Both the position numbers and the translations under genes were made by a program. Shown piece by piece: positions 2,968 through 60,613 of a DNA stretch of 64,000 bases. Positions within the stretch are counted from its first letter, which is position 1. Every line of letters begins with the position of its first letter. The notes under the pieces were generated by a model that had not been told where the DNA came from, searched no databases, and was given only the letters and a program-made list of their open reading frames with translations. The DNA lies in contig JAJYXV010000003.1 of NCBI GenBank assembly GCA_021801565.1, forward strand, positions 68,894 to 132,893. Direction: 5' to 3'. This stretch comes from a bacterium (GTDB lineage Bacteria > Patescibacteriota > Minisyncoccia > UBA6257 > GWB1-50-10).

Positions 2968-2980
2968 ATATGCGCGGGTG
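2968..2980 (+). repeat. 13-nt direct repeat ATATGCGCGGGTG copying the 5' end of tRNA-Leu (second copy at 3282-3294)
   Basis: Exact 13-mer repeated 314 nt apart, bracketing the GIY-YIG ORF. A D-arm-like segment gcgaagtggcagat follows the first copy. Confidence 0.5.
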
Positions 2981-3037
2981 CCCGCCCATGGCGGATAAGG
3001 CGAAGTGGCAGATTTAACCGCCTTTGGCGGTCGCACT

Positions 3038-3280
3038 ATGGAAGTAATAGTGTATTCAATAAAAAGTTTGAAAGATGGATATCGGTATGTCGGAATTACG
3101 AAAAATCTAGAAGATAGATTGAAGAGGCATAATGGGGGTCATAATATTAGTACCGCGTCCCACGCCCCATTTCAGTTGATTTATGAAGAAGTGTTTTCAT
3201 CTTATAACGATGCAAGAAAAAAAGAGAAATTTTTAAAAAGTGGAGTTGGACGAAAGTTTTTGGATACTTTAATATCTTAA
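3038..3280 (+). CDS. GIY-YIG nuclease domain protein (~80 aa)
   Basis: VYSIKSLKDGYRYVGITKNLEDRLKRHN is the GIY-(x10)-YVG...R...H signature. The ORF track starts at a GTG at 3005; the ATG at 3038 is more likely. Confidence 0.75.
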   Translation: MEVIVYSIKSLKDGYRYVGITKNLEDRLKRHNGGHNISTASHAPFQLIYEEVFSSYNDARKKEKFLKSGVGRKFLDTLIS

Positions 3281-3285
3281 GATAT

Positions 3286-3372
3286 GCGCGGGTGGCGAAA
3301 CTGGCAGACGCACTACCTTGAGGTGGTAGCGCCCGCAAGGGCTTGGAGGTTCAAATCCTCTCCCGCGCACCA
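3286..3372 (+). tRNA. tRNA-Leu (anticodon GAG), CCA encoded
   Basis: Acceptor GCGCGGG/CCCGCGC, anticodon loop ttGAGgt, long variable arm gcccgcaagggc, T-arm ggagg-ttcaaat-cctct, 3' ACCA. Confidence 0.85.
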
Positions 3373-3376
3373 GAAT

Positions 3377-3415
3377 ACAAAAGGAAAGAATTTTAATTCT
3401 TTCCTTTTGTATTTA
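3377..3415 (+). terminator. Rho-independent terminator after tRNA-Leu
   Basis: Perfect hairpin acaaaaggaaagaatt-ttaa-ttctttccttttgt followed by attta. Confidence 0.6.
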
Positions 3416-3437
3416 TAGATATGTGAAGGATTTGAAT

Positions 3438-3560
3438 GAGAAGGGGGTCGGGGGAACGGAAGTTTCCCCGTGTAAGAAAATACTAAAAACCGAGAGGTTG
3501 TTAGGGAGCGAAGCGACGTTCAAATCCTCCGCCAGAGGCGGACAAGTCTCCCGCGCACCG
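3438..3560 (+). ncRNA. Unclassified structured element A, paralogous to element B at 9283-9438, ending in a tRNA-Leu 3'-end-like sequence
   Basis: Shares AAGGGGGTCGGGG and AAACCG.GGG..T..TA.GGAG.GAAGCGA.G with 9283-9438. Its 3' part gttcaaatcctc...tctcccgcgcacc resembles the T-arm and acceptor 3' strand of the tRNA-Leu just upstream. Confidence 0.3.
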
Positions 3561-3625: not shown

Positions 3626-4768
3626 ATGAAGAAGAGTCAATTTATTGTTTTTGGTATTGTGCTTATAGTACTCTGTGTTGGAGGATATTTTGTCTTTTCG
3701 TACTTTGAAGAATGGCTCCCGTCTTCACCCACTTTTGATACATATAATCTCCCACCAAATTCCTCTACAACAGGAGATAATATTTCAGATAGTATGGTGA
3801 AAGATCCTTATGCAGGATGGAAAATATACACAAATGAAAAATATGGATACTCGATACATTACCCTGGAAATTGGTATGTCGACACGCGCTTTTCGAATAG
3901 AGATTTCAGCACGCGCGGAAGTGGTGATGTGATGGGCGGGGATACGCTGTTCGCAAATTACGAGAATGGCTATGATTACGACATTACGAATATGCCACGG
4001 GATTTCGATTCAATACAGCTTCTCATTTATAAAACCGATCCAAAGATTGTTTTTCTTGATGATTACGTGAAGACGATCAATTTTGTTGGGTTGTATACAA
4101 AAGAAGATATAATGATCCATGGCGTTCCGGGGCTCAAGCTTACCTTCAGTAAAGACAGAGAGCAGCCATCCGCGGATGCAGTAGTATTTTTAAAGATCAA
4201 TGATAGGGTGTTCAACTTCAGTATACGAGATTCCGCGATAAAAGAACTCATAACCAACTCCTTCCGTCCAAGCGAAAAAAATATGCTTCTTTTAAAACTC
4301 CTTAATCAGCATTTTCCTCCATTTGGAATAGTGGATACACCATTCGCATTTATAAACGGGGGATATAAATATTCATACTGTGGAGGAAAGATGCTTGGTG
4401 AAGAGGACTGCAAGAACAATCCAATATATCAAAATACAACAAGCATATATCTTGACGAAGGTGTGCTCTCGTTTGAAAAAACACAAAATGGGATATATTA
4501 TGTCGCAACGATCGTCACGTTCAATGCCGGAGGAACAGGTCAATATAAATATCTTGTCCTTTTGAACGGAACCCCCGATTCCGATCTTTCGTATGTCGCA
4601 AGTGTAGATCTTGGTGATAGGGTGCAAATACACAGTATCTCATTTTCCGAGGGGAAAATTGTTCTCGATATGAATATACATGGACCAAATGATGGACTAT
4701 GTTGTCCAAGTGTTCGTACAACGAAAATATTCGAATTACAGGGAGGAAATTTAATGGAAGTCCATTAA
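3626..4768 (+). CDS. Hypothetical secreted or membrane-anchored protein (380 aa)
   Basis: N-terminal TM/signal anchor FIVFGIVLIVLCVGGYFVF. No recognisable catalytic motif. A TGnTATAAT element lies 6 nt upstream of the ATG. Confidence 0.6.
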   Translation: MKKSQFIVFGIVLIVLCVGGYFVFSYFEEWLPSSPTFDTYNLPPNSSTTGDNISDSMVKDPYAGWKIYTNEKYGYSIHYPGNWYVDTRFSNRDFSTRGSGDVMGGDTLFANYENGYDYDITNMPRDFDSIQLLIYKTDPKIVFLDDYVKTINFVGLYTKEDIMIHGVPGLKLTFSKDREQPSADAVVFLKINDRVFNFSIRDSAIKELITNSFRPSEKNMLLLKLLNQHFPPFGIVDTPFAFINGGYKYSYCGGKMLGEEDCKNNPIYQNTTSIYLDEGVLSFEKTQNGIYYVATIVTFNAGGTGQYKYLVLLNGTPDSDLSYVASVDLGDRVQIHSISFSEGKIVLDMNIHGPNDGLCCPSVRTTKIFELQGGNLMEVH

Positions 4769-49795: not shown

Positions 49796-49836
49796 AAATA
49801 AACCACTCCGCACTGAAAGTGCGGAGTGGTTTATTT
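49796..49836. terminator. Bidirectional terminator, perfect 18-bp stem with A-run and T-run
   Basis: aaataaaccactccgcac-tgaaa-gtgcggagtggtttattt. Confidence 0.6.
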
Positions 49837-49837
49837 G

Positions 49838-49899
49838 CTGCGGGACTAGGAGTCGGACCTAGATACCGGGATTCAAAGTCCCGTGTCCTACCATTAGAC
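49838..49899 (-). pseudogene. Partial tRNA-Gln copy (62 nt, D-arm to 3' end, no 5' acceptor strand), abutted by the palindrome CCTGCCTGCGCAGGCAGG
   Basis: Identical to nt 49951-50012 of the intact tRNA-Gln, but the 5' side reads gcaggcag instead of TGCGGGATC and cannot pair with the 3' acceptor strand. Confidence 0.5.
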
Positions 49900-49950
49900 C
49901 TGCCTGCGCAGGCAGGCGATCCTCAAATGAATATAAACTCTCGATCACAG

Positions 49951-50021
49951 CTGCGGGACTAGGAGTCGGACCTAGATACCGGGATTCAAAGTCCCGTGTC
50001 CTACCATTAGACGATCCCGCA
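49951..50021 (-). tRNA. tRNA-Gln (anticodon TTG), CCA not encoded, atypical T-loop TCCGACT
   Basis: Minus-strand reading: TGCGGGA-TC-GTCT-AATGGTA-GGAC-A-CGGGA-CTTTGAA-TCCCG-GTAT-CTAGG-TCCGACT-CCTAG-TCCCGCA-G. All stems pair. Position 55 is C rather than U. Confidence 0.7.
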
Positions 50022-50028
50022 GCCGTGA

Positions 50029-50298
50029 TCACGAATTTTTTTTATATTGTTTTATTAATTTTTCTTTTTCAATTCTTTTATCTTTGAGTCTTCGTTCATA
50101 GTTTCTCGCTTCATATTCACTCAAAAATTCTCTAATAAAAACAAGTTCAAAAGGTCGATATGATCTTGTTGATCGTGTTTTTCCTAGATTACGCTCTTCG
50201 ATACGCCTACCGATATTGTCGGTGCTTCCAATATAATACCAGTTCCTTTCGCAACTTTTTAACATGTAGACAAACCACATGTAAGGTAAAAATACCAA
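50029..50298 (-). CDS. GIY-YIG nuclease domain protein (89 aa), second paralog
   Basis: VYMLKSCERNWYYIGSTDNIGRRIEERN GIY-YIG signature. Immediately 5' of tRNA-Gln on the same strand. Confidence 0.75.
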   Translation of the reverse strand: MVFLPYMWFVYMLKSCERNWYYIGSTDNIGRRIEERNLGKTRSTRSYRPFELVFIREFLSEYEARNYERRLKDKRIEKEKLIKQYKKNS

Positions 50299-50302
50299 TA
50301 AA

Positions 50303-51412
50303 TTAGACTATTTTCAACTGCTCTATAATCGCTGTCTCAAGCGGAATGATAGGGAATTGGCTGTAGCGCATCTGGCCATAGGCGGTGATAAGCGATTGGA
50401 TGAGTCCGGTGTGTGCATCGGTGAAAAGTTTTGAGTGTGCAAGAAGTATTTTCAGATGATCTTCCGAAAGTTCTTTCGTCATAAGTTCTGCCATACTTGG
50501 TGCGTATTTTAAGACTGCAACACGACGAAGATATTGGAGAAGATCTTTGGTGAATTGCGGAAGGTTGTATCCGCCATTTTCGATGTGGGAAAGCGCGACA
50601 AGTGATTTATCGAGATTTTTTTTGAGTAATAATTCTGCGAACTCGGAAAGTTTTCCGAATCCTACCTTCCCAATTGTTTTTTCCACATCTTCAAGAGATA
50701 TCTCTCCTTTTCCGAATGAAATGAGTTGATCAAGAAGCGATTCAGCATCGCGGAAACTTCCTTCGGCCGATGTGGCAATAAGATCAAGCGCGTCGGGAGA
50801 AATTTCTATTTTTTCATTTTTGATTATTTTTGTAAGTTTCTCGATGATCCGTTTTACCGTGACTCGCTCAAAGAAAAACTGCTGTGTGCGTGAACTGATT
50901 GTTGAGGGGACGCGATCCACCTCGGTGGTTGCGAGTATAATAACAATGTATTCCGGCGGTTCTTCAAGTGTTTTCAAAAGTGCATTCCATGCATCTTTTG
51001 TGAGCATGTGGGCTTCATCAATGATGAACACTTTATATCGTCCTATATTTGGCCCAACACGAATTCCTTCTTTTAAATTTCTAATTTCATCAATTCCACG
51101 GTTTGATGCGCCATCAATTTCTATCGTGTCCAAACTTCGTCCTTCGTCGATTTCTTTGCATGTTTTACATTCATTGCACGGTTCTCCTTTTTTCCTGAAT
51201 ATTGCGTCTTTCATACGTGTTTCGCAGTTTGCAATTTTTGCGATAAGACGCGCGGTTGTTGTTTTTCCCGTGCCACGCGGTCCCGCAAAAAGGTATGCGT
51301 GCGAAAGTTTATCGCGTTTTGCCGCTTCTTTTAAAATACGAACAATTATTTCTTGTCCTAGAAGATCATTGAATGTTGCGGGACGATATTTTCGATATAT
51401 AGCGATGGGCAT
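50303..51412 (-). CDS. dnaX: DNA polymerase III subunit gamma/tau, short form
   Basis: YRPATFNDLLGQE...YLFAGPRGTGKTT AAA+ clamp-loader motifs and a zinc module CNECKTC. Confidence 0.9.
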   Translation of the reverse strand: MPIAIYRKYRPATFNDLLGQEIIVRILKEAAKRDKLSHAYLFAGPRGTGKTTTARLIAKIANCETRMKDAIFRKKGEPCNECKTCKEIDEGRSLDTIEIDGASNRGIDEIRNLKEGIRVGPNIGRYKVFIIDEAHMLTKDAWNALLKTLEEPPEYIVIILATTEVDRVPSTISSRTQQFFFERVTVKRIIEKLTKIIKNEKIEISPDALDLIATSAEGSFRDAESLLDQLISFGKGEISLEDVEKTIGKVGFGKLSEFAELLLKKNLDKSLVALSHIENGGYNLPQFTKDLLQYLRRVAVLKYAPSMAELMTKELSEDHLKILLAHSKLFTDAHTGLIQSLITAYGQMRYSQFPIIPLETAIIEQLKIV

Positions 51413-60507: not shown

Positions 60508-60613
60508 TTTATAAAGTCCGTAAAGTTTAGAGTTTTTAAAGTATGAAAGAAGAACGAATATGCCACAACTGTCCGCCCAAGGCGGATCAGCCTCGGGCTG
60601 ATAAATATTAACT

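Follow-up and report, generated by a model that had tools for sequence, protein, structure and literature searches.

Why a gene for a very small GIY-YIG nuclease should sit between dnaX and a tRNA-Gln gene, and why that tRNA gene should be followed by a second copy split by a perfect palindrome, is the question raised by a minus-strand locus (49796–51412) in contig JAJYXV010000003.1 of a patescibacterial genome (assembly GCA_021801565.1). The window analyzed here is a 64,000-nt stretch of that contig, which also carries a companion locus at a tRNA-Leu gene on the plus strand (2968–3560). We read the tRNA-Gln locus as a member of a family of small selfish nuclease-plus-tRNA cassettes that would occupy tRNA genes of candidate phyla radiation (CPR) bacteria and spread in the manner of homing genes, and we rate the chance that this reading is correct as about even. 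It draws on observed features: how the locus is built and conserved, which close relatives carry the cassette and which do not, the purifying selection that acts on the nuclease, and the decay of the interrupted tRNA copy. A preliminary description of the locus had seen in the tandem tRNA copies the attL/attR scar of site-specific integration or excision.

The tRNA-Gln module and its interrupted tRNA copy

Read 5′ to 3′ on the minus strand, dnaX is followed by a GIY-YIG gene (83 aa) and an intact tRNA-Gln; after a short spacer come a second copy of tRNA-Gln and then a terminator. Every element in the order given by the preliminary description, including the palindrome, is present. The dnaX gene (50303..51412; DNA polymerase III gamma/tau, from the names of its homologues and from DNA_pol3_gamma3 and related Pfam domains) lies just 22 nt from the next start codon and is therefore probably co-transcribed with the cassette. 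The mechanically called open reading frame (ORF) for the nuclease (50029–50298) begins at a TTG at 50298; its homologues begin at the ATG at 50280, starting MW.VY, and from this start position we take ATG 50280 as the real start of the single-domain, Gln-type gene (50029..50280; 83 aa; Pfam PF01541).

Downstream lies tRNA1 (49950..50021), the intact, cassette-linked functional tRNA-Gln(UUG), for which the tRNA gene check proposed earlier was positive (ARAGORN; Rfam, 60.1 bits). It is flanked by the two halves of a helix that extends its acceptor stem: a leader half (50022..50035), which includes the ORF stop codon TGA (50029–50031), and a trailer half (GCTGTGATCGAGAG; 49938..49951), the two forming an inverted repeat with 10 contiguous pairs. 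The second copy, tRNA2, starts with a leader remnant and a decayed 5′ acceptor strand (49917..49937; read directly and aligned to the leader and tRNA 5′ end of L201, a close relative). It continues through the 18-nt perfect palindrome CCTGCCTGCGCAGGCAGG (hereafter P; 49899..49916, without strand) between tRNA positions 10 and 11, and ends with positions 11–73 plus one following base (49837..49898), a pseudogene stretch identical to tRNA1 throughout. An intrinsic terminator, recognized as an inverted repeat with a 19-bp stem, a 3-nt loop and a T-rich tail (49796..49836), closes the locus. P occurs once in the 64-kb window, against 0.00 expected from shuffled sequence.

The two tRNA-Gln copies are spaced 51 nt apart and share an exact repeat of 63 nt (49837–49899 = 49950–50012), so that the repeat and terminator of the preliminary description stand with small corrections to their lengths, given there as 62 nt and an 18-bp stem. 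Its report of C55 in a TCCGACT T loop common to both copies is likewise borne out (49963–49969 and 49850–49856). C55 is rare, being present in 3 of the ~46 tRNA-Gln genes examined (the window, L201 and L126). Since the only tRNA-Gln found in L201 matches tRNA1 at 100% identity, we consider C55 a lineage trait of the working tRNA and not a sign of decay.

The second copy had been described as lacking its 5′ acceptor strand behind an 18-nt palindrome; the palindrome is as described, the truncation is not. The 5′ part of the copy reads TTGAGGATCG where TGCGGGATCG would be expected, with positions 2–4 mutated and GGATCG (tRNA positions 5–10) kept directly 5′ of P, which shows that the copy is not a 3′ partial: it is a tRNA-Gln of full length into which 18 nt have been inserted between G10 and U11. 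Three of its seven acceptor pairs are broken (4/7 left), and it does not form a cloverleaf on folding. The Rfam tRNA model scores it at 40.1 bits, above the gathering threshold, with half of P serving as a pseudo-acceptor strand. No Rfam intron family matches at the insertion, which lies in the D stem at 10/11.

To place this arrangement in a wider context, we scanned 185,579 species genomes, one genome per species, with the Gln-type alignment alone as the query. The scan returned only 34 matches, yet these are scattered over CPR classes: 33 fall in CPR (Patescibacteria) lineages, including Saccharibacteria, Levybacteria, Nomura-, Wildermuth-, Staskawicz-, Jorgensen-, Nealson-, Sung- and Brennerbacteria and Paceibacterota, and the remaining one, a weak 18-residue match in Reyranella, was left out of the analysis. 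A same-strand tRNA-Gln (UUG or CUG) follows the ORF at 5–25 nt on its 3′ side in 31/33 CPR loci, and P, exact or with ≤3 mismatches, occupies the 10/11 site in 31/33 as well. A palindrome search of metagenomes added ~13 further modules with P at 10/11 among the matches listed. P therefore holds the same tRNA position in >45 related loci, with ~1.3% substitutions within it, and the GIY-YIG homologues of the module loci (31/33 CPR genomes and the ~13 metagenome contigs) are 46–63% identical. Ten protein homologues traced to contigs (43–100% identity, nine of them at ≥54%) agree with this picture: tRNA-Gln is next on the same strand in 6/6 of their metagenome loci with enough sequence, and P is present in all homologue loci read, invariably at the 10/11 junction of an additional piece of tRNA-Gln. 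From ~45 tRNAs per megabase we estimate chance adjacency to a tRNA at <0.1% per gene. The genes flanking the modules differ widely from locus to locus, and the module-bearing loci hold ~30 copies of P in modules against 1 in ~100 kb of flanks.

Two arrangements recur. In type 1 (~90% of loci), a fragment of the form [leader + tRNA 1–10][P][tRNA 11 to 20–41] precedes the ORF and the intact tRNA; in type 2 (the window, L005/L006, L180, L185 and L192), the ORF and intact tRNA are followed, after 8–20 nt, by a full tRNA copy with P. L192 combines the two, and its upstream fragment matches the full copy downstream, not the intact tRNA. The 10-nt acceptor piece of type 1 varies among loci, yet equals that of the local intact tRNA in ~25/28 of them. 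RNA pairing as the cause of this match was not supported, because the few differences are G-to-A changes, which would break pairing. The distal, D-arm portion of the fragment decays faster than the rest, and a reading of this as neutral decay was rejected, since the stretch in question, GGTAGGAC, lies at the position expected for a ribosome-binding site, just upstream of the start codon. In L178, L189, L193, L196 and P0005 (L001), the GIY-YIG ORF runs into the tRNA (ending ...CGIV or ...CEVV) and stops at the D-loop TAA, GTCTAATGG.

The leader/trailer helix that clamps the intact tRNA is a type-2 feature. It spans 9–13 bp with differing sequences in L005, L180, L185, L192 and L086, and was absent from type-1 and empty loci. 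In the three loci examined for this (the window, L005 and L180), the differences are almost all G·U-compatible, which argues for a helix at the RNA level, probably a processing or folding clamp.

Interrupted copies with decayed acceptor strands are found in the window, L185 and L192, and an intact tRNA copy stands alongside the interrupted one in every locus with enough sequence; judged from their sequence, the interrupted copies are dead. Further palindromes lie in and around them. A second palindrome variant lies in the anticodon loop of the L185 copy (position 1892) and in the T loop of the L192 copy (1871 and 1933 listed), and in L179 (1426–1461), L182 and L196 (just upstream of the ORF) a variant is nested within P, on either side of its central GCGC. 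The nested or tandem variants include CCTGCCCGCGCAGGCGGG and CATGCCTGCGCATGCAGG, in which paired changes preserve a shifted 5-bp hairpin; some variants stand in tandem with P or in the anticodon or T loop of a dead tRNA copy, at sites that include the second copy of L005.

The copies also differ in their history. The acceptor and T stems of the two copies in L005 and L180 differ in sequence yet are fully compensated, so the copies come from separate tRNA-Gln lineages, of which one was resident and the other incoming. The copies of the window and of L185, by comparison, are identical 3′ of P and decayed 5′ of it, a pattern compatible with gene conversion that halted at the insertion. The interrupted copy of the window is most likely the resident gene, since its leader aligns with that of the L201 tRNA and the terminator has been retained.

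Both nuclease genes of the window encode proteins above the gathering score of Pfam PF01541 (Gln-type, E 4.2e-13; Leu-type, E 9e-15). They are 38% identical in pairwise alignment, in keeping with the earlier view of them as paralogs that differ in sequence. The catalytic residues Tyr5, Tyr16, Arg26 and Glu62 are invariant in both the Gln- and Leu-type families, and a further conserved His is found in 32/33 readable Gln-type sequences, the window protein alone having Arg there (residue 31; RIEERN against RIxEHN). The ratio of nonsynonymous to synonymous substitution rates (dN/dS) is 0.05–0.24 between close pairs and 0.09–0.15 for the Leu-type protein against L153 and L156, indicating that the nuclease is under purifying selection, and members of the family are probably active as nucleases; ~10% of the GIY-YIG copies are truncated. 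The AlphaFold2 model (mean predicted local distance difference test score, pLDDT, 82.8) has the alpha/beta GIY-YIG fold, with a three-stranded sheet and helices. Its top eight Foldseek matches are UPF0213 and SLX1 structures, with I-TevI (1ln0) weaker, and phmmer gives the same affinities (1zg2, E 2.4e-6; SLX1, E 0.04; 30–36% identity across ~70 residues). At 78–98 aa, the proteins comprise the catalytic domain and one C-terminal helix, with no separate DNA-binding domain; the modeled protein ends after the catalytic domain and has no counterpart of the C-terminal RING/zinc-finger domain of SLX1.

Close relatives differ in whether they carry the cassette at the dnaX/tRNA-Gln site. By dnaX amino-acid identity, L201 (91%) and L200 (89%) are nearest to the window, followed by L202 (72%), and the first two share the PBP–dnaX synteny of the window. 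In the L201 and L200 loci inspected, no GIY-YIG gene precedes tRNA-Gln, and there is no P and no second tRNA copy; L202 has dnaX, 14 nt, tRNA-Gln and nothing else.

Other ORFs lie at or near this site in the two nearest relatives. A different GIY-YIG-like ORF (MHYVYILWS...FYFGST...QEHNTGKS) starts ~50 nt downstream of tRNA-Gln in L200 (~3950–4060). In place of the GIY-YIG gene, L201 (1721–2407) and L200 (3161–3844) have an unrelated ORF of 227–228 aa, which reads through into tRNA-Gln (L201, 2393–2464), with ..CGIV as its last residues and a D-loop TAA as its stop codon. In Pfam and PDB searches by sequence, this ORF has a weak N-terminal helix-turn-helix match only, and its LYWAEG motif is LAGLIDADG-like by eye only. 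Homologues lie 5′ of tRNA-Gly, tRNA-Ile and tRNA-Gln (L079, 661–1278; L108, 997–1485; L081, 10305–10559; L068, 2559–3212), and by these gene neighbors the family appears as a second one tied to the 5′ sides of tRNA genes.

Modules at other tRNA genes and the palindrome elsewhere

The preliminary description had paired the tRNA-Gln locus with a companion at 2968–3372. The companion is there, and it is more complex than described, with two hairpins in a tRNA-Leu 5′ fragment and a third in a downstream 3′ fragment. Reading along the plus strand, a tRNA-Leu 5′ half (2968..3037; leader ATAT plus positions 1 to ~30, recognized as repeats of the downstream tRNA-Leu) holds two 19-nt GC hairpins, one at 2981–2999 (CCCGCCCATGGCGGATAAG) and one in the opposite orientation at 3013–3031 (TTTAACCGCCTTTGGCGGT). 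It is followed by the Leu-type GIY-YIG nuclease gene (3038..3280; 80 aa; Pfam PF01541) and an intact tRNA-Leu(GAG) (3286..3372; ARAGORN/Rfam) with a terminator hairpin downstream (3374–3413). Direct repeats then mark a degenerate 3′ part of another tRNA-Leu copy (3482..3559, start approximate), with the third 19-nt hairpin, TCCGCCAGAGGCGGACAAG (3528–3546), inserted on the 3′ side of its T stem. A fourth copy, TCCGCCCAAGGCGGATCAG, recognized by its similarity to the others, is intergenic and outside any tRNA (60572..60590, plus strand); here a second small hairpin, TCAGCCTCGGGCTGA, comes directly after the 19-nt CCGCC hairpin (the pair spanning 60572–60604), between two genes and away from tRNAs.

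Homologues of the Leu-type protein come from sources named, for example, Parcubacteria and Patescibacteria. A same-strand tRNA-Leu (GAG or CAA) follows the ORF by 2–8 nt in 9/9 loci with enough downstream sequence, a tenth contig that ends too early downstream of the ORF having been left out, and with the 31/33 CPR genomes of the Gln type this bears out the earlier suggestion of a family of tRNA-associated GIY-YIG elements. Upstream, a tRNA-Leu 5′ half with two 19-mers around the D loop is present in 5/5 loci read (L153, L156, L157, L163 and L165). In the L157 group, the outer tRNA-Leu has left a remnant downstream in which the D loop and hairpin are repeated and another 19-mer is present. L157 and L163 have the same Leu-type nuclease (dN = 0) and different tRNA-Leu(CAA) bodies, and L157 (2451–2558) also has a 53-nt remnant of the L163-type tRNA (L163, 1372–1424) ~680 nt downstream, beyond a 180-aa ORF, apparently the trace of a distinct event, either replacement or integration, at this tRNA.

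Further isotypes and subtypes repeat the theme. An Asn version (L112) runs tRNA 1–7, GC insertion, tRNA 8–16, ORF and tRNA-Asn. A Glu version (L064) has P at the same ATCG|TCTAAYGG site with no ORF, and this speaks for insertion at a specific site. In L086, a GC hairpin (CCCCGCCAAATTT ... AAATTTGGCGGGG) in the D loop of an outer tRNA-Gln is split around a nuclease-plus-tRNA cassette with a third GIY-YIG subtype; the outer tRNA-Gln itself follows a truncated first cassette. The hairpin family tracks the nuclease clade: P goes with proteins whose C-terminus is KDKRIEKEK, the 19-mers with KSGVGRKFL.

The palindrome also has a life outside the module. Among the matches listed, exact P occurs in 25 IMG/VR contigs and >120 metagenome contigs, whose GC content spans 0.29–0.69; these unrelated contexts rule out P as a module-specific sequence. 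Of 140 P sites among those matches, 94 lie within ORFs of ≥150 aa, overwhelmingly in the frame LPAQAG; P is free of stop codons in every frame. In-frame copies (L096, L129, L067, L061, L130, L062, L060, L086 and ~90 more among L008–L152) are hosted by IleRS, PNPase, RecG, RecJ, PheT, NadB and others, identities that were assigned from sequence motifs, with IleRS and PNPase alone confirmed against PDB. The PDB homologues of these two proteins have gaps of 6 and 5 residues, respectively, exactly opposite P.

P sites are flanked by a purine at -1 and a pyrimidine at +1, and no target-site duplication or extended flanking palindrome was seen around them. A local hidden Markov model search detected no GIY-YIG gene next to ~100 unrelated P sites, and a literature search found, within the library it covered, no paper with the P sequence and none describing a GIY-YIG/tRNA module. 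In GC-rich, soil-type contigs, P forms the tip of a bigger recurring hairpin repeat (..GAGATTCCTCGCTTCG-P-CTCGGAATGAC..), seen in L041, L045, L047, L071, L078, L085, L088, L093, L105, L106, L109, L131, L142 and others.

A proposed homing-type cassette and its rivals

Under the reading we favor, the cassette would consist of a ~80-aa GIY-YIG gene of the SLX1/UPF0213 branch joined head-to-tail, on the same strand, to a functional tRNA. Gene and tRNA would be transcribed together, here probably from dnaX, and the tRNA would be freed by normal 5′ processing, aided in type 2 by the leader/trailer RNA helix. A neighboring copy of the same tRNA would have been inactivated by a short GC-rich hairpin, which for tRNA-Gln is always P at 10/11, and the nuclease-linked copy would have taken over the function of the interrupted resident gene. 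The cassette may then spread or persist like a free-standing homing endonuclease gene: the nuclease would act on tRNA-gene DNA, probably recognizing the palindrome or hairpin either as a dimer or through the structure of the substrate, and recombinational repair would install the cassette. Once the resident copy had been broken, the cell would depend on the cassette tRNA.

Several considerations weigh against this reading. That the protein is active as a nuclease, what it targets, in which order the events took place and that the cell depends on the cassette tRNA are parts of it that we infer. The uninterrupted 10/11 junction cannot be the sole target, because the intact tRNA at the locus keeps it and would otherwise be open to self-attack. 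A protein of ~80 aa with no separate DNA-binding domain is unlike the characterized GIY-YIG homing endonucleases, and the Gln-type copy of the window may be catalytically impaired, given that Arg replaces the conserved His. The match between the 5′ fragment and the local tRNA in ~25/28 loci is not fully explained by any simple version of the model. The empty-site check in related genomes proposed by the preliminary description succeeded in part: L201, L200 and L202 are without the cassette, whereas the exact empty-site allele of the window insertion was not recovered, the nearest relatives holding a different ORF there. Finally, the ~100 contexts with no GIY-YIG gene nearby imply that P could be an independent element merely gathering in redundant tRNA copies.

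This last point leads to the chief rival, in which the GIY-YIG gene would be an ordinary small gene, of selfish or host origin, riding tRNA units, the tRNA duplications would be by-products, and the hairpins would be independent, promiscuous micro-insertions tolerated only in a redundant copy, functionally unconnected with the nuclease. We regard this explanation as unlikely on balance while giving it real weight: it would accommodate the copies of P in >100 other contexts, many of them in long ORFs reading LPAQAG, the tendency of dead copies to gather several and nested hairpins, and the flanks of P, which display a purine/pyrimidine preference only. It accounts less well for the near confinement of P to the module in module-bearing genomes (~30 copies against 1 in ~100 kb of flanks, and 1 in the window), for its identical position in >45 loci with so few substitutions, for the tracking of the nuclease clade by the hairpin family, and for the L086 cassette within a split hairpin.

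A bolder proposal, which we hold as tentative and rather doubtful, is that P and the 19-nt CCGCC hairpins are minimal non-autonomous elements mobilized in trans by tRNA-linked, SLX1-like GIY-YIG nucleases. The nuclease-plus-tRNA cassette would be the autonomous partner, and the hairpin would be the recognition or cleavage site of the nuclease, with nested insertions flanking the central GCGC. Cleavage and repair would copy the hairpin to tRNA D arms and, in frame, to essential protein genes on CPR, higher-GC (soil-type) and viral contigs. In a radical variant, a transcript of the form [tRNA 1–10]-hairpin-[tRNA 11–25] might act as guide and scaffold for the nuclease.

A functional tRNA-Gln with an intervening sequence, either a non-canonical intron or a processed insertion, for which the GIY-YIG protein would serve as the intron-type homing endonuclease, is a very unlikely explanation of the interrupted copies. 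The acceptor stem of the interrupted copy is 7/7 paired in L180 and 6/7 paired with compensated stems in L005, P variants retain the hairpin through compensatory changes, and the window copy passes the Rfam threshold, all of which would suit such an intron. The window copy, however, has 4/7 acceptor pairs and no cloverleaf, those of L185 and L192 combine decayed acceptors with extra anticodon- or T-loop insertions, and most loci retain a 5′ fragment only. The insertion lies outside the anticodon loop and, by inspection, has no bulge-helix-bulge geometry. The decay of the interrupted copies and the presence of an intact partner wherever the sequence suffices led us to reject this candidate.

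Still less probable, and in our judgment nearly excluded, is the origin put forward in the preliminary description, integrase-mediated integration or excision that left a partial attL/attR duplication. A direct tRNA repeat does adjoin an intact tRNA, and other DNA integrates at tRNA genes here, as the 53-nt tRNA-Leu remnant of L157 illustrates. The anatomy is nevertheless wrong for it: the copies are a mere 51 nt apart, the repeat takes in positions 5–73 of a full tRNA copy broken at 10/11 and is not a 3′ end, the fragment lies 5′ of the nuclease gene in ~90% of related loci, and P is a conserved component of the module. Gene tables of the related loci list no integrase, and no recombinase was found at the window locus; on this absence and on the anatomy the scar was rejected. 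That assembly or library artefacts made the palindrome and tandem copy, as the adapter dimers and mis-assemblies that classically yield perfect palindromes and tandem repeats might suggest, has a negligible probability in the face of the same insertion at the same position in divergent JGI, ENA, NCBI and Logan assemblies, the strong one-frame bias of P inside ORFs and P variants with compensatory substitutions.

If the homing-type cassette is real, CPR bacteria with their tiny genomes would host an undescribed and widespread class of selfish elements, in which a ~250-nt nuclease gene brings a spare tRNA with it and the neighboring copy of that tRNA is disrupted at a single defined base, combining homing with addiction. 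The stand-alone bacterial UPF0213/SLX1-like GIY-YIG proteins would gain a testable context. The interrupted copies also pose an annotation problem, in that tRNA finders call some of them as genuine tRNAs, and P, in frame across many metagenomes, may be one of the smallest mobile DNA units known.

Comparison with known systems

The Seg proteins of T4-like phages are free-standing GIY-YIG homing endonucleases, and one of them, SegB, is encoded in the T4 tRNA gene cluster. The module shares with them a GIY-YIG gene outside any intron, beside tRNA genes and patchily distributed among close relatives, and it would be expected to spread likewise, by cleavage of alleles lacking the gene followed by recombinational repair. 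Seg proteins exceed 200 aa and have DNA-binding domains, whereas the proteins described here have 78–98 aa, consist of the catalytic domain only, group with SLX1/UPF0213 and not with I-TevI, and occur in cellular CPR genomes. In the phage Seg cases, neither a conserved palindrome nor a duplicated or interrupted tRNA is known to us.

In sequence and structure, the best matches are the SLX1/UPF0213 proteins (URI-type; PDB 1zg2, 1ywl, 6seh and 4xm5). SLX1 cuts branched and hairpin DNA, an activity that would fit the association with hairpins or cruciforms seen here; it has a C-terminal zinc-finger domain and needs SLX4, whereas the protein of the module ends before any such domain. To our knowledge, bacterial UPF0213 proteins have no assigned function and no reported link to tRNA genes.

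Insertion at tRNA genes is familiar from integrase-borne islands at tRNA 3′ ends and from the eukaryotic Dada DNA transposons, which target tRNA and snRNA genes. As in those systems, a replacement copy keeps the tRNA functional while a partial or dead copy stays behind. The present modules differ in having neither an integrase nor a DDE transposase, in duplicating mostly the 5′ half of the tRNA, in the conserved palindromic insertion of the dead copy and in a cargo of one 80-aa nuclease gene.

The hairpins themselves invite comparison with small palindromic insertions such as the Rickettsia palindromic elements (RPE), the GC clusters of yeast mitochondria, the 18-bp PstI palindromes that flank mitochondrial tRNA genes in Neurospora, and REP/RAYT. 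Common to that group and to the elements described here are small GC-rich hairpins in AT-rich genomes, positions in frame within essential genes or in and beside tRNA genes, tandem and nested copies, and, as in fungal mitochondria, coexistence with GIY-YIG genes. No Y1 (RAYT-type) transposase gene was seen beside the modules, in neighborhoods that were not searched specifically for one. Like RPE, P recurs inside conserved protein genes with the reading frame kept; RPE, however, measure ~100–150 bp and belong to one genus, whereas P has 18 bp and is identical across GC contents of 0.29–0.69 and many sources. By analogy, then, the module as a whole would most resemble a free-standing homing endonuclease gene, with a further likeness to elements that restore the small-RNA gene they invade.

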